64,000 nt of DNA from Promethearchaeota archaeon (GCA_016926735.1 JAFGOA010000223.1:31276-95275), one strand, 5' to 3'; positions 575 to 56,364 are shown, numbered from the stretch's first letter. Notes: a model not told the origin generated them from the letters alone. Numbers and translations are program-made.

Positions 575-997
575 TTACCTATATAAATCTTTACTGCGAT
601 CCTCAGTAGATTTTTGGTTTTTCTCAATATTTTCTAATATTTTTGCTCCCTGATCCGATTTTCTTAAGACTATTTTAGCTAGTGCATTTTGACGTTCTCT
701 TATCTCAGCTAAAGAGTTAGCTATATGATTCATTACTTGAAATTGGAGATCACACATTAAAATTTTCTCTTCTTCTCCACATTCATCACAGTGTTCAGAA
801 CAATTCCTCCAATCTTCAAAAAGAAAGTCAATATTAACATCATGAGGATTAATCATACTCTTCTCACATTCCTCACAATTTTTTTCTGCTCGGATATTTA
901 AATCTTCTATAATCTTATAGAGTGATTTTACATAACTCCATTTGCTTGATTCTTTTAAAGTTTCAAATTCTTTTTCGGTTAAAAATTTTTGACTCAT
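575..997 (-). CDS. hypothetical Cys-rich protein (CxxC pairs, possible metal binding)
   Basis: 140-aa ORF with CEECEKS and CSEHCDECG motifs. No family recognised. Confidence 0.45.
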   Translation of the reverse strand: MSQKFLTEKEFETLKESSKWSYVKSLYKIIEDLNIRAEKNCEECEKSMINPHDVNIDFLFEDWRNCSEHCDECGEEEKILMCDLQFQVMNHIANSLAEIRERQNALAKIVLRKSDQGAKILENIEKNQKSTEDRSKDLYR

Positions 998-1519
998 TTT
1001 TTACTACCCTCTAAATTAAAAAATTGATTTATATCAGTTAAAATATATTTCCTTATTTAAATATGACTTTTATAAGTGAATATTATTTTAAAATCTATCT
1101 TAATTAAATAGTTGTGAACGATTTAGATAGATTCCATAAGAATAGTAGATTAGATATTCATTCATAATTAACTTTGGGTTAATGCTAATAACTCTATAAA
1201 CAGAATTTGATTTATAATAAGTCTATCCTGTTCTGTTATTTGGTCATTTGAGATAAGAATATCATTAATATAAATATCCTCTCTAGATTGATGTTCCTTT
1301 ACCATTTCTAACAAAGTAAGCTTTCACTCTTTTTGAATTCTATATTTAATAATATTAGGGTGCTTTTTAAGATTTTCATTTTTATAACTCGATAAAAATG
1401 AAAATAATTTATAAGCAAAATTTTTTTCTTTGAAAGATCTTTATTTTTTTTATATATAAAAATTAATATTAACAGAGTAAGACCTAACAAAATTTTACAG
1501 ATTTCTTCTATCTAAATTG

Positions 1520-1957
1520 CTAAAAAAGGTCTAATAATTCTTTTATCTTTTCATTTTCACTACTTTCCAGAAGTTTTTTTGAAAGTATTTTTTTATTTTC
1601 AAAATATAATTCTAGTCTTTCTGACATTGTTAAATTTGGATATAGGGTTTCTAATACGATATCTCTCTTTGAACATCCTCTACGCCTCATACAGCAATAT
1701 GAAAGAGAACCAAAACATACTAAATCTGAATTCCAATTATTTTGATTGGAAAATTCTTCCTTTATCATTATATATTTCTCTATTGATAAACAAATTTCCG
1801 CTAATCGTTCATCTCTTTTACATTTATCTCCAGATGATAGGTAATAGCCTGGTTTACAACAAAATGTTAGCGCTCTATAATCTCCTCCGATACAAATAGG
1901 AACTGGTGCATCTTTTCCCCATCCCGGGATCTCTCTTACTTTTTTATTTATAATCAT
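1520..1957 (-). CDS. hypothetical Cys-rich protein
   Basis: 145-aa ORF with many Cys (PICIGG, FCCKPG, SYCCMRRRGC). The overlapping + strand ORF 1579..1899 is low complexity and taken as a shadow. Confidence 0.5.
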   Translation of the reverse strand: MIINKKVREIPGWGKDAPVPICIGGDYRALTFCCKPGYYLSSGDKCKRDERLAEICLSIEKYIMIKEEFSNQNNWNSDLVCFGSLSYCCMRRRGCSKRDIVLETLYPNLTMSERLELYFENKKILSKKLLESSENEKIKELLDLF

Positions 1958-2055
1958 TTTTTGAAAGTTTAAGATTTTTTTTTAGGTATTTTATTCTAAT
2001 TTGATATAATTTAAAGAGGGAAAAATAGGACCCGGAGCGGGAATTGAACCCGCGT

Positions 2056-2084
2056 TTCCTCAGCATAAGAATAATCTTAAACTT
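2056..2084 (-). other. tRNA-His intron 2 (29 nt, variable loop), BHB type
   Basis: 4-bp helix CCTT/GAGG (one T.G). 3-nt bulges AGA and AAA. 9-position inner helix AGTTTAAGA/TCTTATGCT with one T.T mismatch and loop TTAT. Excision leaves a 4-nt variable loop AGAC. Confidence 0.7.
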
Positions 2085-2114
2085 CTAAGGATTCACAGTC
2101 CCCAATACTAACCA

Positions 2115-2144
2115 TTATACAAATTACAGTAGAACTGGAATTTT
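2115..2144 (-). other. tRNA-His intron 1 (30 nt, D-loop, between nt 15 and 16), BHB type
   Basis: 4-bp helix GTAT/GTAT (2 A-U plus 2 G.U). 3-nt bulges AGA and AAT. Inner hairpin AAATT-C-CAG/CTG-T-AATTT. Excision gives the canonical D-loop AGTGGTTA. Confidence 0.75.
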
Positions 2145-2488
2145 CTATACAATCCGGGTCATAAATAACAATAATATTATCTAATTTATATTTCTAAAAA
2201 AATTTTAGCTTTTAATAAGCAATTTGATCAATGATATTATGATTTTTGTTTTAAAATAATTTAAAAAGATATAAATAAGAATTTTAGAGATTTTAGAATG
2301 TATTTAAGCTCTTGAAAAAATTAAAATTAAGGATAAGAAGTCTGGAAGATTTATTTCATTCTAAATACTAAACAATATGTTTTTAAGTTAATTATTTTAA
2401 ATATTATTAAGTCAAACTAATAAATTTTTAATTTTTATTCTGATTTAATCCTAATTAGAATATAGAAGATCTTGGAAATTTGATTGAT

Positions 2489-5417: not shown

Positions 5418-6695
5418 TTAAGAAATACTAACCGATTCTAATAAAAATTGTTTATACGAAGTTTGGAACATGTCCCTTATTCGCACAGGCTGAAACCAGT
5501 AGCCTCTATCGGATAGATCTTGAATAAAACCATCTCCGACTACTTTTCTGAGAATATTTAACGCTCCATTTACATCAGCATTAAGAATGTAATTCGAGCC
5601 TTTAAATATTCCCCGTTTTATCCTTTTACCAACATAATGTTGATGTTTCTGTATTGGTTCTAAATCTAATGAACTACATTTTGACGTGTAGGATTCATTG
5701 ACATCATGAACTTTAATTCCTACAAGGCGAGCTTTATAAGTTATCATTTGTTTAAGCTTTTGAATGGGGATATTCAAAAAATTTTGGTTATTTCGTTTGC
5801 CCATTCGAATATTTTGTTTTATATTATCTAATTTACCCAAACAAATGTGTCCTATCTGTTTTTCCAAACAATAACCGACAATGAATTGAGCTGTTTTATG
5901 CAAATAATCCTTTACAATTGAGTTTCTCCTTATTGTAATCTTATCGAGTCTATCAGTCCACTTTAGTTCTTGTTTATCCTTAATAGAAAAAAATCTTGCT
6001 TTCTGTTTATTCCATTGCCGATTAATTGATTTTAGAATTCTCCCTGAAATAATAATTGGTTTAGTATTCATATTCTCTGCTGTAGTGATTAAATTATTCA
6101 ATCCAAAATCGATTGATAAATATCTCGTGGTATCTAATTTTGACGTTTCTATTTCTTTTTTATATATTATTTCAATTTCATAAAATCCTTTTCGTGGCAA
6201 AATCCTTATCTGTTGATACTCTCCAAAACGCTTGTTTTTATACGTAGGAATTTTAATTTCAATAGGGTTTTCAAACTCAGGAAATAGTTCTTTAAAAAGG
6301 TGAGACATTGTAAGAACGATTTTATCCTGTTTAATCTTGCTATTCTGGTTAGTAAATATCAAAATGTTGTTACAACCTTTCTTGTATTTAGGTGGTCTCG
6401 GTCTTCCATTGAATCTTTTCCTATCTTTTTTCCACTCCTTTATAGCATTGAAGAAACTTTTCCAGTTTTTATCCAAGACTTTAAGAATTTGTTGAGAGGT
6501 TTGAGCTTTTAACAATTTATATTGGCTATATTTTTTCATTATGAAATCTAAATCGTTATATCGAAGCCAATTCTCTAGATGAAAGAAATCCTGTCGAATA
6601 TACCAATTAGCTTGATTATAAAGCTTCTTAGAAATTGAACAGAGCACATCTAAATGCTCAGTTCTCAGAGTCCTGAATTTATATACTAATTTCAT
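5418..6695 (-). CDS. tnpB: TnpB / OrfB_IS605-family protein (RNA-guided nuclease family), no tnpA partner
   Basis: 425 aa. RuvC-I-like SIDFGLNN. C-terminal YTSK...NADVNGALNILRK is typical of TnpB. The expected RuvC-II Glu and the CxxC..CxxC zinc finger are not evident (see findings). Confidence 0.8.
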   Translation of the reverse strand: MKLVYKFRTLRTEHLDVLCSISKKLYNQANWYIRQDFFHLENWLRYNDLDFIMKKYSQYKLLKAQTSQQILKVLDKNWKSFFNAIKEWKKDRKRFNGRPRPPKYKKGCNNILIFTNQNSKIKQDKIVLTMSHLFKELFPEFENPIEIKIPTYKNKRFGEYQQIRILPRKGFYEIEIIYKKEIETSKLDTTRYLSIDFGLNNLITTAENMNTKPIIISGRILKSINRQWNKQKARFFSIKDKQELKWTDRLDKITIRRNSIVKDYLHKTAQFIVGYCLEKQIGHICLGKLDNIKQNIRMGKRNNQNFLNIPIQKLKQMITYKARLVGIKVHDVNESYTSKCSSLDLEPIQKHQHYVGKRIKRGIFKGSNYILNADVNGALNILRKVVGDGFIQDLSDRGYWFQPVRIRDMFQTSYKQFLLESVSIS

Positions 6696-31119: not shown

Positions 31120-33123
31120 ATGAGTAAAAATAAATACGAATTTAAAGCAGAAATTAAAAAACTATTAGATATCTTGAGTAAATCCCTTTATCAACATAAA
31201 GAAGTTTTCCTCAGAGAATTGATTAGTAATTCTGTAGATGCACTTAAAAAAATTCATTTTTTATCATTAACAGATAAAAATATAGAAGATATTGAAGATA
31301 ATCTTAAAATTGAAATTATCATTGATTCTGATTCTAAAACAATTACTGTTAAAGATACAGGAATTGGAATGAATAAAGAGGAGCTTATTAATAATTTAGG
31401 AACTATTGCTGGAAGTGGTTCTCAAAAGTTTCTAGAACAACTTAATAATACCCAAAAAATAGATAATAAAAATGTGGATTTAGATGTTATAGGTCAATTT
31501 GGTGTTGGGTTTTATTCGATTTTCATGGTTGCTGATAAAGTTAAAGTAATTTCGAAATCATATATTAAAGAAGAGAACGCTTATGAATGGGAATCAGATG
31601 GAACTGGAGAATTTATTGTAAATAATAATGATAAATCTACAAGAGGAACAGATGTAATATTATTTCTTAAAGAAGATGAGAAAGAATACCTTGATAAATT
31701 TAGGATTGAATCAATAATAAAAAAATATTCTAATTATGTCTCTTTTCCAATTTACGTTTCTGAAATAAAAAAAGAAGCAGAAGAGGAAAAAGAGAAAAAA
31801 GTTGAGGAAGTGGAAGATAAAAAAAAACCTGAACCTATTAATGAATTAACTCCTTTATGGAAAAAAAATTCAAAAGATATTACTGAAGAGGAATATAAAA
31901 GCTTTTACCATTTTATTTCCAATAGATATGATAATTATTCACATGTTATTAATTATAGTATAGATGGCACTGTTCAATTTCGTTCTATACTTTTCATACC
32001 TGAATCTGATATCAATCAATTTATAAGACCTGATGATGAATATGGCTTAACTCTTTATTCTAAAAATGTAATGATTATGAAAAATTGCAGTGATTTAATT
32101 CCAAAATGGATGAGATTTATAAAAGGAGTTGTTGATTCAAATGATATTCCATTAAATATCAGTAGAGATACCATTCAAACTAATCGGGTAATGATGAAGA
32201 TAGAAAAATTACTAATTAAAAAAATATTAAGAGAACTTGATAATATCGCTGAAAATGAACCAGAGAAATATAAGAAATTATGGGAAAGTTTTTCTCCATA
32301 TATAAAAGAGGGTATTCTTTCTGACGCTTTTAGAACAGATAAACTTCTTACTTATCTTCGCTTTAATAGCTCAAAATCAAAAGAGGGCGAATATAGAAGT
32401 ATTGAAGATTATATAAAAGATATGCCTGAAACTCAAAAAGAACTATATTATTTAATTGGCGAAAATCTAAATACTTTGAAGTTATCACCTCATTTAGGAT
32501 ATTATAATGAAAATAATATGGAAGTTATATTATTAGATGAACCTATTGATAATTTCTTAATGATGAATGTACGTGAATATAAAAAAACAATACTGGAAGG
32601 TGAAAATGAAGAAATTAAATCATACACCTTTACTCCCATAGATGTAACAGAACCTACTAAGGAAGATAAAGAAGCATCAGAGGATGAGGGTAAAAAAGAT
32701 AAAACTGAAGAACTTATTCCTGAGAATATAAAGAAATTCTTTGAATATGTAAAATCTACTCTTGGAGAAAAGATTCTTGAGGTTAAACTGTCTGATCGTC
32801 TCTATCAAAATGTATGTAGATTGGCAAATCCTGCTGGTGGTATGACTTCAAGTATGCAAAGAGCTATGAGATATTGGACAAAAACAGAATATGGAAAAGA
32901 TTTTGAAATTCCGAGGAAAATTTTAGAGTTTAATAAGGATCATCCTATTTTTAATAAATTAATTGAACTTTATGAAAATGATCCAAAAGATGATAAAGTC
33001 ACATTAATTATAACTCAACTTTTTGAAAATTGCCTTTTAGCTGAAGGTGATCTACCAAATCCATCTCTTATGGTTCCAAGAATAAATCAATTAATTGAGT
33101 TATTATTAGTTGAAAAAAAATAG
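31120..33123 (+). CDS. htpG: Hsp90-family chaperone HtpG
   Basis: GHKL ATPase motifs (FLRELISNSVDALKK, DTGIGM, GQFGVGFYS), middle-domain NISRD, 667 aa. Confidence 0.9.
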   Translation: MSKNKYEFKAEIKKLLDILSKSLYQHKEVFLRELISNSVDALKKIHFLSLTDKNIEDIEDNLKIEIIIDSDSKTITVKDTGIGMNKEELINNLGTIAGSGSQKFLEQLNNTQKIDNKNVDLDVIGQFGVGFYSIFMVADKVKVISKSYIKEENAYEWESDGTGEFIVNNNDKSTRGTDVILFLKEDEKEYLDKFRIESIIKKYSNYVSFPIYVSEIKKEAEEEKEKKVEEVEDKKKPEPINELTPLWKKNSKDITEEEYKSFYHFISNRYDNYSHVINYSIDGTVQFRSILFIPESDINQFIRPDDEYGLTLYSKNVMIMKNCSDLIPKWMRFIKGVVDSNDIPLNISRDTIQTNRVMMKIEKLLIKKILRELDNIAENEPEKYKKLWESFSPYIKEGILSDAFRTDKLLTYLRFNSSKSKEGEYRSIEDYIKDMPETQKELYYLIGENLNTLKLSPHLGYYNENNMEVILLDEPIDNFLMMNVREYKKTILEGENEEIKSYTFTPIDVTEPTKEDKEASEDEGKKDKTEELIPENIKKFFEYVKSTLGEKILEVKLSDRLYQNVCRLANPAGGMTSSMQRAMRYWTKTEYGKDFEIPRKILEFNKDHPIFNKLIELYENDPKDDKVTLIITQLFENCLLAEGDLPNPSLMVPRINQLIELLLVEKK

Positions 33124-33177: not shown

Positions 33178-34533
33178 TTAGTCTAAATCATCAAAGATAT
33201 TATAGATTTCATCGATTATATTATCAAATTCAACTATTTTTTGTTCTTCAGTTACCATATTCTTTATCGTGATTCTATTTTGTTCCATTTCTTTTGGTCC
33301 TAATATTAAAGAAACTCTAACACCAAGTTCACTTGCTTTTTTAAGTTGATTTCCTAAATTTTCAAATCTATAATCAATTATGCATGGAAATTCTTCATAT
33401 CTTAATTCTCTTGCTATTTTGTGAGCATATTGAGATTGTTTTATATTTATTGAAGCAATATAAATAACATCAGAATAATCGCTATTCATAATTTCCTCTG
33501 GAATTAGATTATATGTTTCAAGAAAAAGTTTTAACATTAATAATCCCATTCCAAATCCAATTCCTGATAATTCTTCATTTGAGAATAAAGATAATAAATT
33601 ATCATATCTTCCTCCACCAAAAATCGCTCGTCTATTTTCTTTACCAGTATCAAAAACCTCAAAAACAGTACCAGTATAATAATCTAGACCTCTGACAACA
33701 TTTGATGCAAATGAGCAATATTCTGTGATATCTAAGTCTTGTATAAGATTTTCTATTTCAGATAATTCTTTATAACCTTGACTCTCAAGAAATTGATCTG
33801 GGATATTATTAAATTTATTAAGAACTTCTTGTATACTTTTTGCATCCTTTAGGATTAAAATACCTTGTTTTATTATTTCTTCTTTGAAATTATCATTAAT
33901 GGTCTCTAAAAATTCCTTTTCTTCTAATTTATTGGATTTATCTAAAAGATTATATATCAATGATATTTTATTCTTTGGAACCTTTAAAATAAAATCACAA
34001 ATTGCATCAATAAATCGTCTATTATTGTAATATATTTGAAATTGTTCTGAAGTTGCCCCAAAACTCGTTAAAATATCTATAATTATATTCAAGATTTCTA
34101 ATTCTGCATAAAGACTGTTTTCACCTAAGATATCAACATTGAATTGAATAAATTCTCTTCTTCTTCCTCGTTGTGTATCTTCATATCTATAGCAAGTTGG
34201 AACAGAATACCATCTAATTGGTTTTTTAAATTCTTGACTTTTTCTTGCAATCATTCTTGCAAGTGTGGGGGTGATTTCAGGTCTTAAAATAAGTTTTTTA
34301 TTTCTTTTATCTTTAATCCAATATGCTTGTTCTTGGACTAATTCTTCAGATGATTTTGCTGCAAAAATTTCAATTGGTTCTAATAAAGGACCAGAATATT
34401 CTTCATAACAATAAACCTCAATGATATCTCTAATTTGGTCTATTATCCAATTGTCCAATCTTAAATTTGAAGGATATGAATCCTCCATACCTTTAAGAGG
34501 TTGTGTCGAAAATCTTTTGTTTTCTTCTTCCAT
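33178..34533 (-). CDS. hisS: histidyl-tRNA synthetase
   Basis: Class II motifs (LRPEITPTLARM, YRYEDTQRGRRREFIQFNVDILG, GGGRYDNL) and a C-terminal anticodon-binding domain. Confidence 0.9.
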   Translation of the reverse strand: MEEENKRFSTQPLKGMEDSYPSNLRLDNWIIDQIRDIIEVYCYEEYSGPLLEPIEIFAAKSSEELVQEQAYWIKDKRNKKLILRPEITPTLARMIARKSQEFKKPIRWYSVPTCYRYEDTQRGRRREFIQFNVDILGENSLYAELEILNIIIDILTSFGATSEQFQIYYNNRRFIDAICDFILKVPKNKISLIYNLLDKSNKLEEKEFLETINDNFKEEIIKQGILILKDAKSIQEVLNKFNNIPDQFLESQGYKELSEIENLIQDLDITEYCSFASNVVRGLDYYTGTVFEVFDTGKENRRAIFGGGRYDNLLSLFSNEELSGIGFGMGLLMLKLFLETYNLIPEEIMNSDYSDVIYIASINIKQSQYAHKIARELRYEEFPCIIDYRFENLGNQLKKASELGVRVSLILGPKEMEQNRITIKNMVTEEQKIVEFDNIIDEIYNIFDDLD

Positions 34534-36178: not shown

Positions 36179-36712
36179 ATGGAAAAAAAAATCAGCAAAA
36201 CCTTAATAATGGGATTAAGAAATAGTGGTAAATCATCCATCTTGGAATATTTTCAAGGGATACGTAACCTAGTTTTATTCGGAAATATAAAACCAACAGT
36301 CCATATCGACAGAGTAATTTATCAAGCAGTTGATTATGAACATCTTATTTGGGATTTTGGAGGTCAAATCGATTATTTAAGTGATTACTTAGAACAATTC
36401 TATGAATATGCTTATGAAGCAGATGAGATAATATATGTGATTGATATTCAAGATCAAGAGAAATATAATCCTTCTATCAATTTTTTAAAAAAAATTATTA
36501 AACTTTTAGTTGATAAAGAACTATATATAGATATTAAAGTGTTTTTGCATAAATTTGACCCGGATTTGGATCATACACATCCAGAGATAAATGAAGAAGT
36601 AATTATTAATCTTCTAAAAGATGTTAAAAATATTTTTTCTGATAATATTAGCTACAGTATTTTTAAAACATCTCTTTATGTTGATTTTAAAAAATATCAA
36701 ATAATAGGATGA
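36179..36712 (+). CDS. small GTPase, Rag/Gtr-like (Ras superfamily), single G domain
   Basis: G1 GLRNSGKSS, G3 WDFGGQ, G4 HKFD (the HKxD variant typical of Rag/Gtr), G5 FKTSLY (compare the FRTSIW context of Rag). Confidence 0.7.
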   Translation: MEKKISKTLIMGLRNSGKSSILEYFQGIRNLVLFGNIKPTVHIDRVIYQAVDYEHLIWDFGGQIDYLSDYLEQFYEYAYEADEIIYVIDIQDQEKYNPSINFLKKIIKLLVDKELYIDIKVFLHKFDPDLDHTHPEINEEVIINLLKDVKNIFSDNISYSIFKTSLYVDFKKYQIIG

Positions 36713-40448: not shown

Positions 40449-42410
40449 ATGGAAAAAAAAGAAAACAAAGATATACGGAGTTTTGTTGTTGTCTGTCGAT
40501 GTGGTATTAACATTTCAGAAATAATCGATTGTCCTTCCCTAGTTGAATTCTCTAAAAAATTACCTACTGTTGTTGATGCTGATGAATATATTAGTATTTG
40601 TACTGAACCAGGTGCAGAATTTATAAAAAAAAAAATGACAGAAGCTAATGCCAATAGATTGATTGTTGTTGCTTGTACCCCTAAAACTCATGAACCTGTG
40701 TTTAAAACTGTTCTTGAGTCGATGAATTTAGATCCTTCTTATCTTGAATTTGCAAATATAAGAGAACATAGTAGTTTTGTTCATAGAAATGATATTGAAG
40801 GTGCTCAAAAAGTAGCTAAAGATATAGTTAAATCTGCTGTTGCAAGAGCATCCTTGTTAGAACCTATTAAAATAAAAGAAGTAGATATCACCAAAGAAGT
40901 TTTAATACTTGGTGGAGGTGTTTCAGGGTTAACTTGTGCAATAGATCTAGCTGAAGAAGGGTATATAGTACATCTAGTTGAAAAATCTCCTACAATTGGA
41001 GGTAAGATGGCTCAATTAGATAGAACGTTTCCAACTGATGATTGTTCAATCTGAATTTTAGGACCAGTAATGTTACAAGCAGCGAGAACCAAAGGACTAA
41101 ATATATACACATATAGTGAATTAGAGAACGCTAATGGATTTGTCGGGAATTTTGATGTAAAAATCAGAAAAAGAGCAAGATTTGTAACAAATGATTGTAA
41201 TGGATGTGGTGCTTGTGAACCTGTTTGCCCTGCAATTAGTTCAAATGAATTTAATGAAGGATTAAATCCAAGATCAGCAATTTATACAGCATTTGCTCAA
41301 GCAGTACCCTCTATCGCACAAATTGATATGACAAAATGTATAAAATGTGGTCTATGTCAAAAAGCATGTGAACTAAATGCTATAGATTTTGATCAAAAAG
41401 ATGAAATTCAAGAGATAAAAGTAGGAGCAATTGTCGTAGCTACTGGTTGGGATGAATATATACCTCCTATTGGAATGTTAGGATTTAATATATATCCTAA
41501 TGTTATTACTCAAATGAAATTAGAGAGAATTCTTGCCCCAAATGGTCCTACAATCGGACATTTAGCAAGACCTTCTGATGGAAAAACACCAAAAAAAATC
41601 TTATTCATTCAGTGTGTTGGTTCACGAGATTTAAATAAAAATACTTATTGTAGCTCAGGAGTATGTTGTATGATTTCAATAAAAAATACAAAGCTTATTA
41701 AACAACATTATCCTGATTGCGAAATAACCGTAGCATATATGGATATTCGTGCAGCAGGAAAAGATTATGAAGAGTATTTTACAGCATCTAGAAAGGAAGG
41801 GATAAGATATATCAGAACTAATATTAGTAAGATAGAAGAAAATCTTGAAAATCACAATTTAATCATTAAAATGCAAAATACTCTCAGAGATTCTAAGAAA
41901 TTTCAGGAAAATGAATTTGAAATGGTTGTACTTTCTTGTGCTATGACTCCCCCTAGAGGAATAAAAAAAATACAAACCTTACTAAAATTAGAGACAAGCA
42001 GAGATGGCTTTTTCAAAGAATTTCATGCAAGATTGAATCCAATTGATACAAAAATACCTGGAATTATTCTTGCAGGGGTTAGTCAAGGTCCTAAATCTAT
42101 AGCTGAATCGATATCTCAAGGAAGAGCCGCAGCCTCATCCGCAGCTCGATTAATGAGTAAGGATAAATTTAGAATTGCTCTAATTAGAGCAAAAGTAGAT
42201 AAAGAAAAATGTGCTAAATGCGGTTTATGTGAATTTAATTGCCCTTATAATGCTATTACTTTGAAAGATGATGGCGCAGATGTTGATGAAATTTTATGTA
42301 GAGGATGTGGTTCATGTTTAGCTAATTGTCCATCAGAAGCAATAAGTTTAAGATATTATAAAGAGAATCAGTATGAAAAACAAATAGATGCGATTCTTGA
42401 GAATACATAG
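40449..42410 (+). CDS. hdrA: heterodisulfide reductase subunit A (HdrA) selenoprotein; in-frame TGA = Sec
   Basis: Track ORFs 40449..41054 and 41070..42410 are in one frame, separated only by TGA 41052-41054. That TGA sits at FPTDDCSI-U-ILGP, where HdrA homologs have Cys or Sec. FAD motif GGGVSG and four ferredoxin-type Cys clusters. 653 codons. Confidence 0.85.
41052..41054 (+). other. UGA selenocysteine codon in hdrA
   Basis: Aligns with the conserved Cys of the DCSxC motif. Confidence 0.75.
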
Positions 42411-44544: not shown

Positions 44545-46113
44545 ATGAGATTAATAGTAAAAAAAATAAATTTTGAAACTGGTAATATGAAAGACGTTGT
44601 GCTTAACCATAATGATGCTGAAAAAATAGGACAAAAAGTTGGAGAACGTGTTATTATTCAAAATATAAATACTAAAAACTTAAGTGAAAAATATTGGGTT
44701 GCTATATTAAAAATTTCATATTCAGATTCTATAGTAGCTCCAGGAGAAATAGGAATTTTTGCTGACACATTTAAAGATATAAAAAATTTAAAAGAAAATT
44801 CCAAAGTCTCAGTTTTAGCTGCTGAAGCACCTACATCATATAAAAATATCCAAAAAAAAATTAAAGGTTTTAAACTTAATTCTGATGAAATTCATAGTAT
44901 TATAAAGGATGCAGTATCTGGGAAATTGTCACAAATAGAAATTGCATCATTTATTACTGGTATTTCTATTAATAATATGGATTCTGATGAAATGACAGCA
45001 TTAACATTAGCAGAAGGTAACAGTGGAAGAAAATTTGATTTTGGTCCGGAAGTCTATGACAAACATAGTACATAAAATTGCACTCTGTAATTTTAGCTAA
45101 AAGGTGGAGTTCCGGGTAATAAAGTAACACTTATAATCGTTCCAATAATTGCAGCTGCAGGATTAATTATTCCGAAAACAAGTACTCGTGCTATAACATC
45201 TCCTTCAGGTACAGCCGATTCAATGGAGGTTCTAGCGCCAATCTCTTTTAATTCAGAAGAAGTAAAAGAATTTATCTCAAAAAGAGGAGCATGTATTATT
45301 TGGGGAGGTGCTTTAGATATAGCACCTGCAGATAATGTTTTTATAGAAGTTGAACGTCCACTTCATTTTGATCCTATGGGTTTAATGATACCTTCAATTT
45401 TAGCTAAAAAACTTAGTATGGGTGTAAAAAACCTAGTATTAGATGTACCTATTGGTAAAGGAACAAAATTTCCTACACTTAAAGATGGACAAAATTTTGC
45501 TCTCATATTCAATCAAATTGCCAAAAATATTGGTATTCATAGTGAGTGTGCTTTAACCTTAGCTCATCAACCTGTGGGTCACTGTGTTGGACCGGCAATT
45601 GAAGCTCAAGAAGCAATTTCTCTTCTGAGGGACTATAAAGTAGGACCTAATTCTTTAATAGAAAAATCAACTTCATTAGCAGGTATTCTTTTAGAGATGG
45701 CAGGAAAAGCTAAAAATGGAGAAGGACAATTATTAGCTAAAGATATCTTAAAATCAGGGAAAGCTTATACAAAAATGAAAGAAATTATTGAAATGCAAGG
45801 TGGTAATCCTAATATTTTGCCAGAAGATATAGAATTAGGTCCATATAAACTTGATATCTATGCTCAAAAATCAGGTCATATCACTCAAGTGGATAATGCT
45901 TTAATTAATCAAATTGCAAAAGCAGCAGGCTGCCCCTATTCTAAAACTTCAGGAGTTAGAATTTATAAAAAACAAGGTGCTAAAATAAATAAAGGTGATA
46001 TTATTTTTACAATCTATTCTAATACTGAAAATAAGTTAAAAAGAGCTGAAAAATTATACAATAGTTCTGGAGGGCCTATTATATTAGGAGGAATGCTCAT
46101 AGAACGTATTTAA
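44545..46113 (+). CDS. AMP phosphorylase (archaeal DeoA-type, thymidine phosphorylase family) interrupted by one 30-nt BHB intron
   Basis: Exons 44545..45071 and 45102..46113 give 512 aa. The spliced product has [49 protein letters not shown]. The N-terminal extension is typical of AMP phosphorylase. Confidence 0.85.
45072..45101 (+). other. AMP phosphorylase intron (30 nt), BHB type
   Basis: Helix TAGT/GCTA, bulges ACA and AAA, inner 7-bp helix TAAAATT/AATTTTA. The insert carries three in-frame stop codons. Confidence 0.75.
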
Positions 46114-52887: not shown

Positions 52888-53874
52888 ATGGAAAAAAAAC
52901 AATTAAAATTAACAATTCCAAAAGGAAGTCTTCAAGAAGTGGTTACTTCATTTTTCAAACGTGCAGGATTATATTTACAATTTTCTTCAAGTAGAGATTA
53001 TCGTCCAAGTGTTAATGATTCTGAATTATATATTAAGTTGTTAAGACCACAAGAAATTCCTAATTATTTAATTGGAGAAGATGAGTTTGATTTGGGTATT
53101 TCTGGTATAGATTGGGTAAAAGAAACAAATGCAGATGTCGAAAATATTTTAGATTTAGAGATCGGTGGTGTAAAAATAGTCTTTTGTGTTCCTAATAATT
53201 GGGAAGATATTACATCTCTTGATGATGTTCTTAAAAAATTCAATAATGATGGTAAAACTTTAAGGATTTCAACAGAATATTTAACATTATCTTTAAATTA
53301 TCTAAAAAATAATGCGACATATAAACAACTTTATGGTGATAAAGCCCCTATTGTAATAACTCCTTGGAGGAAATGGGGTGAAAATGAATTAATAAAAATA
53401 TTCCTTTCTTTTGGCGCTACAGAAGCTAAACCGCCAGAAGAGGTTGATGTAATTATTGATAATACACAAACGGGTTCAACATTAAGAGCTAATAATCTTA
53501 AAATTATTGAAGTTCTTGATACATCTACTGCTGTTCTAATTGCTAATAAAAATGCATTAAAAGATGCATGGAAACATGAGAAAATAAAAGATTTAAAAGT
53601 TCTCCTTATGGGAGTAATTGAAGCATCTAAAAAACTTCATATATTTATGAATGTTAAAAAAGAAAATCTGAATATAGTTTTATCTAACCTTCCTGCATTA
53701 AAAAGACCCACTATCTCAAAATTAGCAGGTGATGATACAGAAGAATGGTGTGCAATTAATACTATTATTAAAAAGGATGAATTTATTAATTTAATTCCTG
53801 TTTTAAGAAAATACGCCCAAGGACTTGTTGTTCATGAACCAAGACAAATTTTACCTTTTGAGAAAATTAAATAA
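52888..53874 (+). CDS. hisG: ATP phosphoribosyltransferase
   Basis: LTIPKGSL...RPQEIP.YL..G..DLGISG.D and the DNTQTGSTLRAN motif. Confidence 0.9.
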   Translation: MEKKQLKLTIPKGSLQEVVTSFFKRAGLYLQFSSSRDYRPSVNDSELYIKLLRPQEIPNYLIGEDEFDLGISGIDWVKETNADVENILDLEIGGVKIVFCVPNNWEDITSLDDVLKKFNNDGKTLRISTEYLTLSLNYLKNNATYKQLYGDKAPIVITPWRKWGENELIKIFLSFGATEAKPPEEVDVIIDNTQTGSTLRANNLKIIEVLDTSTAVLIANKNALKDAWKHEKIKDLKVLLMGVIEASKKLHIFMNVKKENLNIVLSNLPALKRPTISKLAGDDTEEWCAINTIIKKDEFINLIPVLRKYAQGLVVHEPRQILPFEKIK

Positions 53875-53891
53875 TTTTGAGGTAATGTGAT

Positions 53892-55193
53892 TTGGAGGAC
53901 TTAAGAGTTTTTAATTCAAAAGAAATTAATCGTAATTCACTAAAAGATCTTAAATCTCTATATGAAGTACAATTTGAGAATATTGAAAATGATATAAAAA
54001 AAATTATTTTTGATGTCAAAAATGAAGGAGATAAAGCTTTAATACGGTATACAAAGAAATTTGATAATGTAAAATTAGATTTGGCGGATCTTAAAGTAAA
54101 AAAATCAGAAATTGATGATGCCTATAGTTCTATTGATGAAAAACTATTAAAAGCGATTCAATTTAGTAAAAGAAATCTGATTAAATTTCATACTGCTCAA
54201 TTAAAAAAAGAATGGAATATAAATATTATTGAAGGAGTAAATGCTGGTCAAATTTATCGTTCTATAGATTCGGTTGGAATTTATGTTCCTGGAGGAAAAG
54301 CTATTTATCCTAGTACTGTGTTAATGGCTTGTGCACCAGCATCTGTCGTTGGAGTTGATAAAATAACAATATGCTCTCCTCCCCAAAAAAATGGAAGCAT
54401 TGCTCCTGAAATTCTTGTAGCTGCTAATGAATTCAATATAGAAAATATATGTAAAATAGGTGGAGCTCAAGCTATTGCTGCGATGGCTTACGGCACTGAA
54501 ACAATTCTTCCTGTCCAAAAAGTTATTGGACCTGGTAATAAATGGGTAAATACAGCAAAACAATTATTATCTAAAATTATTGCTATAGATAATCCTGCTG
54601 GTCCTTCAGATATTTTAATAATTGCAGATAAGTATGCTAATTATGAATATGTAATTTTAGATTTTATATCTCAAATAGAACATGATCCTGATAATATCGG
54701 AATAATTGTTAGCGATTCTAATGAATTAATCAAATCTATAACCAGCAATATAAATTCTTTTATTGAAAAAGCTAAGAGAAAAGATATTATTAAAAAAGCT
54801 CTTAAAAATAGTTTTATAGTGAAAGCAGATAATCTTGATGATTGTATAAGAATCTCTAATTTAATAGCTCCAGAACATTTGGAAATTCAAACTAAAAATC
54901 CAAGAGAAATATTAGCAGAAATTTATAATGCAGGAGCAATATTTTTAGGTCAATACACTCCAGTTCCTCTTGGAGATTATTCAGCAGGAACAAATCATAT
55001 ATTACCGACTGGAGGTTATGCTAAAACATATTCAGGGCTAAACATATATGATTTCATAAAAATTATTGATGTACTCGAATGCACAGAACAAGGATTATAT
55101 GAATTAAGTGATTCTGCTATTACATTTTCTAAATTCGAGAACCTTAATTCTCATGGGGATGCTATTAAAGGAAGATTAAAAGATAAAAAATAA
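53892..55193 (+). CDS. hisD: histidinol dehydrogenase
   Basis: GIYVPGGKA.YPSTVLM, GGAQAIAAMAYGTE, GPGNKWV, PEHLEI, GDY.AGTNHILPT. TTG start. Confidence 0.95.
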   Translation: MEDLRVFNSKEINRNSLKDLKSLYEVQFENIENDIKKIIFDVKNEGDKALIRYTKKFDNVKLDLADLKVKKSEIDDAYSSIDEKLLKAIQFSKRNLIKFHTAQLKKEWNINIIEGVNAGQIYRSIDSVGIYVPGGKAIYPSTVLMACAPASVVGVDKITICSPPQKNGSIAPEILVAANEFNIENICKIGGAQAIAAMAYGTETILPVQKVIGPGNKWVNTAKQLLSKIIAIDNPAGPSDILIIADKYANYEYVILDFISQIEHDPDNIGIIVSDSNELIKSITSNINSFIEKAKRKDIIKKALKNSFIVKADNLDDCIRISNLIAPEHLEIQTKNPREILAEIYNAGAIFLGQYTPVPLGDYSAGTNHILPTGGYAKTYSGLNIYDFIKIIDVLECTEQGLYELSDSAITFSKFENLNSHGDAIKGRLKDKK

Positions 55194-55278
55194 AATGAAT
55201 GTAAATTTTATTTTATTGATATTTCAACTAATTGAAACATGTAACTTTAAAATTCAAAATTAATATTTTTGATAAATA

Positions 55279-56364
55279 ATGAATGTAAATCAGTTAATTC
55301 GGGCACACTTAAGAAAATTTGCCGAATATATTCCTGGGGAACAACCTATAGAAAATGATTGGATAAAATTGAATGCAAATGAAAATCCTTATCCACCACT
55401 CCCAGAAATTATAAATGATATTAAAAAAAAAACAAATGAAAGACTTCGTCTCTACCCAGATCCATTGGCAAAGGAATTAAAAACTAAAATAATAAATAAA
55501 CTCCTTAAAAAACATAATCCACCTCAATCTATAGATTCTTATTTTGTTGGAAATGGAACTGATGAAGTATTAGAAGTTATATATAAGGTCTTTATAGACA
55601 TAGGGGATGATATAATTTATTTAGATCCCTCATATGGTATGTATAAAACCCTTTCAGATTTATTTGGAGCAAATTCGATTGAAATAAAACTTAATAAAGA
55701 TTTTTCACTCCCAGAATCATTATTTGAAGCAAAAGGAAAATTACTGATTATTTGCTCCCCGAATAATCCTACTGCCAAATCATTTGATAATCATCTTATA
55801 TCAAAAATTTGTGAGACTTTTCCTGGTATAGTAATTGTTGATGAGACCTATTCCGATTTTACAAATAAAACATCTATACCACTACTAAACAGAACAAAAA
55901 ATTTAATCATTACCAGAACTTTCTCTAAAAGCTTTTCACTAGCTTCATTAAGAGTCGGATTTGCTATCTCAAATCCAGATATAATCAAAGTCATGAATCA
56001 AGTAAAATTACCATACAATCTTAATTACTTGTCACAAGTTGCAGCTATATCTTGTATAGATAATATGGAAAAAATATTTGAGAGAAATAAAATAATTATC
56101 TCTGAAAGAGAAAAAATCACTGAAATATTAAATAACTATGAAAATGTAGAAGTAATACCCTCAGATGCTAATTTTATTTTAGTTAGATTAAAAAATAAAT
56201 CTCAAGCTATGTATATCTTTAATGAAATGAAAAAAAATAAGATCCTCATTCGATATTTTCCAAAACCAAGTTTAGAAAATTATCTTAGAATATCAATTGG
56301 TACTGAAGAAGAAAATAAACAATTATTGAAAGTTTTCAATGATATTGCTAATAATTTTCTTTAA
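55279..56364 (+). CDS. hisC: histidinol-phosphate aminotransferase
   Basis: LNANENPYP, NPNNPT and RTFSKSFSLASLRVG (PLP lysine context). Confidence 0.9.
   Translation: MNVNQLIRAHLRKFAEYIPGEQPIENDWIKLNANENPYPPLPEIINDIKKKTNERLRLYPDPLAKELKTKIINKLLKKHNPPQSIDSYFVGNGTDEVLEVIYKVFIDIGDDIIYLDPSYGMYKTLSDLFGANSIEIKLNKDFSLPESLFEAKGKLLIICSPNNPTAKSFDNHLISKICETFPGIVIVDETYSDFTNKTSIPLLNRTKNLIITRTFSKSFSLASLRVGFAISNPDIIKVMNQVKLPYNLNYLSQVAAISCIDNMEKIFERNKIIISEREKITEILNNYENVEVIPSDANFILVRLKNKSQAMYIFNEMKKNKILIRYFPKPSLENYLRISIGTEEENKQLLKVFNDIANNFL

Follow-up and report, generated by a model that had tools for sequence, protein, structure and literature searches.

The locus at 2029..2160 of a 64-kb stretch of Lokiarchaeal DNA (the window, taken at its full length) raises the question of whether a segment in which a standard tRNA finder detects nothing can be a working gene for tRNA-His, interrupted twice at unusual positions. 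The answer reached here is that it is very probably a functional Lokiarchaeote tRNA-His(GUG) gene, split by two protein-spliced introns of the bulge-helix-bulge (BHB) type. An earlier note, made from the sequence alone, had described such a gene in an interval that proves exact to the base but is given in plus-strand coordinates with the strand left unstated; the gene lies on the minus strand.

The candidate tRNA-His gene and its detection

Read on the minus strand from 2160 to 2029, the pre-tRNA-His(GUG) consists of exon 1 (16 nt, GACCCGGATTGTATAG), intron 1 (30 nt, AAAATTCCAGTTCTACTGTAATTTGTATAA), exon 2 (30 nt, TGGTTAGTATTGGGGACTGTGAATCCTTAG), intron 2 (29 nt, AAGTTTAAGATTATTCTTATGCTGAGGAA) and exon 3 (27 nt, ACGCGGGTTCAATTCCCGCTCCGGGTC). 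The features of the locus and its flanks are as follows.

2191..2206, minus strand: conserved motif AAAATTTTTTTAGAAA, lying 31-46 nt upstream of G-1
2029..2160, minus strand: complete pre-tRNA-His(GUG), from G-1 (2160) to the discriminator C73 (2029); ARAGORN call on the spliced form
2145..2160, minus strand: exon 1, with G-1, the acceptor 5′ strand A1-A7, U8, U9, the D-stem 5′ strand G10-U13, A14 and G15
2115..2144, minus strand: intron 1, 30 nt, at position 15/16
2085..2114, minus strand: exon 2, with U16, G18, G19, the D-stem 3′ strand, the anticodon arm, A44 and G45
2056..2084, minus strand: intron 2, 29 nt, within the variable loop (position 45/46)
2029..2055, minus strand: exon 3, with A46, C48, the T-arm GCGGG-TTCAATT-CCCGC, the acceptor 3′ strand and C73
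2021..2027, minus strand: T-rich tract TATTTTT, directly 3′ of the gene

Removal of both inserts yields a 73-nt product that adopts a canonical cloverleaf with all of the invariant nucleotides (by eye: U8, A14, G18G19, A21, U33, G53, T54-Psi55-C56, A58 and C61), a 7-bp acceptor stem, a G15:C48 Levitt pair, and G-1 (2160) opposite C73 (2029). Its identity as tRNA-His is given by the GUG anticodon together with the encoded G-1:C73, a combination found in the window and in all orthologues. The anticodon GTG (2096..2094, minus strand) lies within exon 2 in an unbroken loop, CTGTGAA (RNA CUGUGAA), and the window gene has no insert at 37/38. CCA is not encoded after C73, the sequence CTA being present instead. 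The upstream motif recurs at every orthologous locus despite diverged flanks, with the core TTTTTTTA[A]GA and usually as AAAWTTTTTTTAGAA, and is probably a BRE/TATA promoter element; T-rich tracts follow the gene in all orthologues, and that of the window is probably an archaeal oligo-T terminator. Judged from their sequences, the two flanking elements would fit an expressed tRNA-His gene.

Given the raw 64-kb window or the raw locus, ARAGORN finds no tRNA. After deletion of both inserts, and only then, it calls a 73-nt tRNA-His(gtg), in agreement with the product and the encoded G-1:C73 that the earlier note had expected from the removal of 30 and 29 nt; after deletion of one insert, the no-intron mode returns nothing and the intron mode makes a spurious call of Tyr or Asn. 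The Rfam tRNA model gives one borderline partial match in the window (29.4 bits, 2120..2037, model positions 10-63), in which the second insert is accommodated as an insertion in the variable loop and the 3′ end of the first (GUAU, 2120..2117) is used as D-stem. A sensitive Rfam scan of the window (E<=1) gives no further tRNA and no match to an intron family. Because ARAGORN misses the gene and the Rfam match is partial, genomes of the Loki lineage would seem to lack tRNA-His or would be wrongly annotated, and the practical value of the finding is the correction of an annotation missed by standard tools.

Orthologous loci and the placement of the introns

Orthologous loci were recovered by an exact-pattern scan (anticodon arm plus T-arm, with 6-36 nt between) and by synteny. 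The scan matched five species-representative genomes and two metagenome contigs, all named organisms being Promethearchaeota (Loki). The genomic slot is conserved: the tRNA-His gene is flanked on one side by a DtxR-like repressor gene and on the other by a small, Cys-rich gene of the 'methanogenesis marker 9-like' kind, and further loci were fetched through homologues of the latter as a synteny anchor, the homology searches covering the best 120-150 matches. In the window, the anchor encodes a 145-aa Cys-rich 'methanogenesis marker 9 domain-containing' protein (1520..1957, minus strand), which lies directly 3′ of the tRNA-His gene at most recovered Loki loci and has no Pfam match; an exact-protein look-up of the DtxR-like ORF with a TTG start gave no match. 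L018 and L022 are truncated at contig ends, and no tRNA-His is found upstream of the anchor gene in L011. The ADH of the window has an identical Logan contig, which adds no diversity; a metagenome (SRR13394437) is the one other source of the sequence. The intron content of the loci is as follows.

No introns: L004, L005 and L016 (Rfam tRNA 55-58 bits, full-length; ARAGORN tRNA-His)
Intron at 15/16 only: L003, L007
Introns at 15/16 and 32/33: L009, L010, L013
Intron at 32/33 alone: L017
Intron at 22/23: L002
Two introns, at 45/46 and 58/59: L012
Four introns, at 22/23, 32/33, 45/46 and 58/59: L019 and L020 (both ~905..1130), L021 (upstream of the gene at 1201)
Both introns of the window, in near-identical loci: L006, L008 (intron changes only at unpaired positions)

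The tRNA-His genes of Lokiarchaeia thus carry introns at 15/16, 22/23, 32/33, 45/46 and 58/59, with zero to four per gene, and none of the genes recovered has an intron at 37/38; the placement at 15/16 and in the variable loop, with nothing at 37/38, had been read correctly from the window, the spliced product and the orthologues being in accord. The introns are mostly 29-30 nt long (range 26-39), and most of them begin with A and end with AA. All spliced orthologue versions are called as tRNA-His(gtg), and the spliced window product is identical to the spliced or intron-less orthologues at 62-70 of the 73 positions. This syntenic series, with zero to four introns at five sites, records how introns come and go naturally in the archaeal group nearest to eukaryotes.

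The junctions predicted for the window occur in relatives that lack the corresponding intron, and the boundaries 2115..2144 and 2056..2084 of the earlier note hold accordingly. For intron 1, the junction GTATAG-TGGTTAG is present in the intron-less L004 and L005, and L007 is L004 with a 29-nt insert exactly at 15/16 and is otherwise identical. For intron 2, L003 carries only intron 1, has exons identical to the spliced window product at 70 of 73 positions (three differences, none of them in exon 1), and shows the predicted junction TAGACGCGGG (CTAG-ACGCGGG). Inserts homologous to intron 1 are found at 15/16 in L003, L007, L009, L010 and L013, and 30-nt introns homologous to intron 2 are found at 45/46 in L012, L019 and L021, so that intron-less alleles with the predicted junctions are accompanied by diverged copies in which the structure is kept. 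At the level of sequence, the intron boundaries are set by comparison, not by folding. The sole remaining ambiguity is a shift of intron 2 by one base (2083..2055), which gives an identical spliced product; helix-bulge geometry favours 2084..2056. Exon content, exact boundaries, motif geometry, and the conservation and turnover of the introns in relatives are established here.

The same comparison bears on the alternative readings of the locus. A dead tRNA-His pseudogene with two insertions that are never removed, the functional gene lying elsewhere, would be in keeping with the failure of standard finders on the locus, but it is very improbable given undamaged exons that match L003 at 70 of 73 positions, and inserts that sit in a conserved syntenic slot with a splice-motif geometry kept across lineages, including a compensatory change. 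Moreover, in many Loki genomes the slot was seen to hold no tRNA-His other than an interrupted allele, with one to four inserts, and the exact-pattern scan finds a single copy per genome, including the closest genome representative, L006, which has the interrupted copy only.

There is likewise very little probability that the boundaries of intron 1 lie elsewhere, with the TTGTATA copy at the end of the insert serving as the D-stem 5′ strand up to A15 and the intron falling between positions 7 and 10. Such a shift is formally allowed by the direct repeat TTGTATAG/TTGTATAA, and the Rfam covariance model places GUAU 2120..2117 in the D-stem; this placement is contradicted by G15, which is found in all orthologues sharing this D-arm (GTATAG-TGG or GTACAG-TGG), intron-less or not, and which forms the Levitt pair with C48. 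(The divergent D-arm of L016 has A at position 15.) The boundaries adopted here are also the best helix-bulge solution, and the intron of L007 ends in ATAC without a GTAT repeat, from which the 'repeat' in the window is explained as G.U symmetry of the central helix. A mobile-element target-site duplication was rejected on the same ATAC end.

The remaining alternative, in which insert 2 is kept as the long variable arm of a class-II-like tRNA-His, has a minimal probability: the Rfam model does fit this insert as a variable-region insertion, but the orthologues examined that lack the 45/46 insert have variable loops of 4-5 nt, the 3′ end of the insert pairs with the anticodon stem and would unwind it, and close relatives either have or lack this same structured 30-nt element, as they do the other introns. 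Assignment as a class II tRNA was rejected on the same 4-5-nt loops. Group I and group II introns have a catalytic RNA core of hundreds of nucleotides, and self-splicing introns of these types were rejected on the basis of insert lengths of 29-30 nt and the lack of an Rfam intron-family match at E<=1. A nucleomorph or other eukaryotic origin, raised by the 26% G+C (25-31% in 4-kb windows, about 27% overall), was rejected because the window proteins are Lokiarchaeal and the gene organisation is prokaryotic; the window histidyl-tRNA synthetase (HisRS) matches a protein from a 'Candidatus Lokiarchaeota archaeon' MAG at 100% identity, which places the source among the Asgard archaea.

With the two-intron reading, an observation on annotation may be added. 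ARAGORN reports a 'tRNA-His' in L003 (3498..3570) and in L007 (3240..3313) whose 5′ end falls inside the 15/16 intron, with a false acceptor stem and D-arm built from intron sequence, which is a route to mis-annotation of such genes.

Intron folds, splicing pathway and known systems

Both introns can be drawn with a 4-bp central helix, two opposite 3-nt bulges and a strong inner helix h′, as the earlier note had it, and explicit scoring of the geometry bears this description out, including the weak outer helix. In intron 1, the 3′ GUAU pairs with the D-stem strand G10-U13 to form the central helix GUAU:GUAU (G.U, U-A, A-U, U.G), with bulges AG|A and AA|U, an inner hairpin AAAUU-C-CAG(U)/(A)CUG-U-AAUUU (5 bp, one mismatch, 4 bp), and an outer helix of only U.G, U.G, A-U and G.U; this arrangement is the best-scoring helix-bulge candidate in the precursor. 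In intron 2, the 3′ GAGG pairs with the anticodon-stem strand C40-U43 to form the central helix CCUU:GAGG, with bulges AG|A and AA|A and a 9-bp inner hairpin with one mismatch, and a contiguous outer helix is absent. The weak (intron 1) or absent (intron 2) outer helix places both in the relaxed HBh′ class.

The fold alone is no better than chance in this A+T-rich DNA. Motifs of the grade of intron 2 occur at ~80 per kb per strand (~1,600 per 20 kb per strand, versus ~1,480 in shuffled sequence), and those of the grade of intron 1 at ~0.3 per kb (6-7 per 20 kb, versus 5-8 in shuffled sequence). Since the motif has no discriminating power here, the case for the introns must rest on the exons and on comparison, and exon reconstitution together with the comparative evidence is far beyond chance. 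The locus had been put forward as an internal positive control for fold rules applied to protein genes, and it does show the machinery and the local style of intron, but with the motif equally frequent in shuffled DNA it carries no information on specificity. Nor is minimum-free-energy (MFE) folding a useful test for a bulged motif in A+U-rich RNA: the unconstrained MFE structure of the precursor prefers continuous helices and does not produce the bulged motif. The central helix of intron 1, with two A-U and two G.U pairs, is thermodynamically marginal, and hard-constraint folding did not enforce so weak a helix, for which reason the geometry was scored explicitly instead. No further copies of either intron were found in the window.

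Conservation of pairing was assessed on families of only 5-6 distinct sequences; MAFFT aligned the upper hairpin parts inconsistently, so the count covers the central helix plus the first 3-4 pairs of the inner hairpin. In the 45/46 family (five distinct sequences), 95% of cells are paired, versus at most 60% with slid partners, and the central helix is paired in 100% of cells. It is CCCU:GGGG in L012, L019 and L021, giving one compensatory pair, C-G in these three loci and U-A in the window lineage. In the 15/16 family (six sequences), 92.9% of cells are paired, versus 18-60% with slid partners. Here double changes are impossible in the central helix because the exon strand is the invariant D-stem; the helix is fully Watson-Crick in L007 (GUAU:AUAC), where the window has G.U and U.G, and in three of the six orthologues a G/A mismatch replaces its first pair, the 15/16 motif being genuinely relaxed. 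The upper pairs of the inner hairpin differ in sequence between clades, with pairing kept. Introns at different sites also resemble each other: the 45/46 intron of the window and the 58/59 intron of L021 are alike beyond chance (score 21, versus 10.7 +/- 2.2 for shuffled sequences, 0/300), and the 45/46 and 58/59 introns of L012 share AAGAATAYTCTT, which suggests intron duplication or transposition between sites.

In established archaeal tRNA-splicing biochemistry, EndA cleaves each bulge behind its second nucleotide and the exons are ligated by RtcB; on this basis, from which splicing itself, the chemistry of cleavage, the enzymes and the sequence of events are inferred, a pathway may be proposed as follows. 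Transcription from the conserved A/T-rich promoter element would give a precursor of ~132 nt, not counting leader and trailer. The four bases that precede the final two of each intron would imitate the usual partner of a strand in an exon stem, GUAU of intron 1 replacing the D-stem 3′ strand and GAGG of intron 2 replacing the anticodon-stem 5′ strand; such mimicry by the intron 3′ end is also seen at 22/23, 32/33 and 58/59 in relatives. Together with the intron-internal hairpin, the mimic would create a relaxed BHB (HBh′) with a 4-bp helix between two 3-nt bulges, in which EndA, expected to be of the (alpha-beta)2 form with an L1 loop, would cleave on both sides behind nucleotide 2 of the bulge (AG|A ... 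AA|N). The exons would then be joined by an RtcB-type ligase, RNase P would leave the encoded G-1, and CCA would be added afterwards.

Non-canonical relaxed motifs require an EndA of the (alpha-beta)2 or epsilon2 type with a specificity loop. The host is accordingly expected to have a broad-specificity EndA, a prediction that agrees with the Asgard literature, in which the enzyme has the (alpha-beta)2 form with an L1 loop throughout the group (Kaneta et al. 2018, PMC5829648), and two K01170 genes have been reported for Atabeyarchaeia. The 64-kb window contains no EndA homologue (phmmer, with an M. jannaschii EndA seed validated against 1A79) and no RtcB gene.

The closest known parallel is within the same superphylum. 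Introns interrupt 92-95% of the tRNA genes of Atabeyarchaeia and Freyarchaeia, a single gene having as many as four (Valentin-Alvarado et al. 2024, PMC11291895), and Asgard tRNA introns are mostly at non-canonical positions, many of them missed by tRNAscan or ARAGORN (PMC11291895). Several short non-canonical introns per tRNA gene, overlooked by the tools, are thus common to these groups and the window, and the tRNA-His of Atabeyarchaeia also has an intron starting ~13 nt from the 5′ end (PMC11291895). The window differs in belonging to the class Lokiarchaeia and in its much lower G+C. A literature search found no published description of this particular tRNA-His gene, but the two-intron tRNA-His is a further instance of a type already documented in Asgard archaea; the remark in the earlier note that multiple non-canonical introns characterize a few archaeal lineages was right, yet for Asgard archaea the feature is already published and common. 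Also in Lokiarchaeota, tRNA-Sec has a 31-nt intron in the T-loop (Mariotti et al. 2016, PMC4989117), which shares the phylum and the ~30-nt size, and lies at a site comparable to 58/59 of L012, L019 and L021, but is the single intron of a different tRNA.

Outside the Asgard archaea, Thermoproteales have multiple non-canonical BHB introns with transposition (Sugahara 2008, Fujishima 2010; reviewed in PMC4033280 and PMC4090602), and 45/46 is a listed non-canonical intron site (PMC4090602). Like the Loki tRNA-His genes, they display relaxed HBh′/hBH motifs, sites that include 22/23 and 45/46, rapid gain and loss, and similar intron sequences at different sites (in Loki, 45/46 and 58/59). Unlike them, Thermoproteales are TACK hyperthermophiles with G+C-rich RNAs, and the maximum number of introns per gene is three in the reviews of that group (PMC4033280, PMC4090602), compared with four in Loki tRNA-His. 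Ectopic and multiple tRNA introns are also known from cryptophyte and chlorarachniophyte nucleomorphs and from Cyanidioschyzon merolae (PMC4090602), which resemble the window in having A+T-rich genomes and introns in the D-arm of tRNAs, and which also have them in the T-arm.

A candidate mRNA intron and other genes of the window

When the window was scanned for helix-bulge candidates that, once removed, join two long open reading frames into one, a single candidate stood out, in the following gene.

44545..46113, plus strand: AMP phosphorylase (deoA-like) gene, with a 30-nt insert at 45072..45101

The insert contains three in-frame stops and splits the conserved motif DKHST|GGVPGNK. Its removal creates a junction that encodes DKHSTGGVPGNK and gives a protein of 512 aa with a gapless alignment to the Thermococcus AMP phosphorylase 4GA5 (441 bits); among the matches listed, the full-length Asgard homologues are nearly all uninterrupted and about 504-514 aa long (most 509-512), and two entries, P0345 and P0347, have the look of split genes. 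The unconstrained MFE structure of the insert region is exactly HBh′, with the central helix UAGU:GCUA, the bulge AC|A and a 10-bp inner helix. Another Loki MAG (L022, 1..110) has a different 30-nt insert at the same AMP phosphorylase site, which is also HBh′ by MFE and has the central helix CAGC:GCUG, a compensatory U-A to C-G change relative to the window that synonymous exon substitutions make possible. The insert is probably an mRNA intron spliced by EndA, and it is well supported, more interesting than the tRNA-His locus and deserving of follow-up. It also resembles intron 1 of tRNA-His (AAAATT...CTGTAATTT), a score that 2 of 500 shuffles reach and that is not significant after correction for 32 comparisons.

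The precedent for such an intron is the BHB intron of the cbf5 pre-mRNA in Crenarchaeota, the only experimentally confirmed EndA-spliced protein-coding transcript (PMC2738675), in another gene and another phylum; among the papers searched, none was found that describes EndA-type mRNA introns in Asgard archaea. If the AMP phosphorylase insert is spliced, archaeal mRNA splicing would extend beyond cbf5 of Crenarchaeota to Asgard archaea. The local 'style' of EndA substrates, as documented by the tRNA-His locus, is shared by the insert. With some hesitation, it may be suggested that the tRNA-His introns belong to a fast-turnover population of ~30-nt BHB introns in Lokiarchaeia, which occupies five sites in tRNA-His, shows sequence similarity between 45/46 and 58/59, and has possibly also colonised at least one protein gene, that of AMP phosphorylase. 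Members of this proposed population may typically begin with A, finish in AA, imitate the displaced stem strand with their 3′ end, and lack an outer helix. If true, EndA/RtcB-type mRNA splicing would be present in the archaeal lineage closest to eukaryotes, with tRNA-His as an in-genome reference substrate.

Several other genes of the window merit mention. Two neighbouring HdrA-like ORFs in the same frame (40449..42410, plus strand) correspond to an FAD-binding N-terminal and a 4Fe-4S-rich C-terminal portion, and nothing but an in-frame TGA lies between them (41052..41054, in the context DDCSI-TGA-ILGP); this TGA is probably a selenocysteine codon because Lokiarchaeota encode Sec machinery. 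The gene for HisRS (33178..34533, minus strand) and a hisG-hisD-hisC-like cluster (52888..56364, plus strand) share the window with tRNA-His, probably by coincidence. A 425-aa TnpB/OrfB_IS605-type protein with OrfB_IS605 and Cas12f1-like TNB domains (5418..6695, minus strand) is encoded ~3.3 kb from the tRNA gene. The window further encodes an Hsp90/HtpG homologue (31120..33123, plus strand) and a small GTPase of the Gtr1/RagA/Arf family (36179..36712, plus strand), a family of eukaryote-signature-type proteins typical of Asgard genomes.
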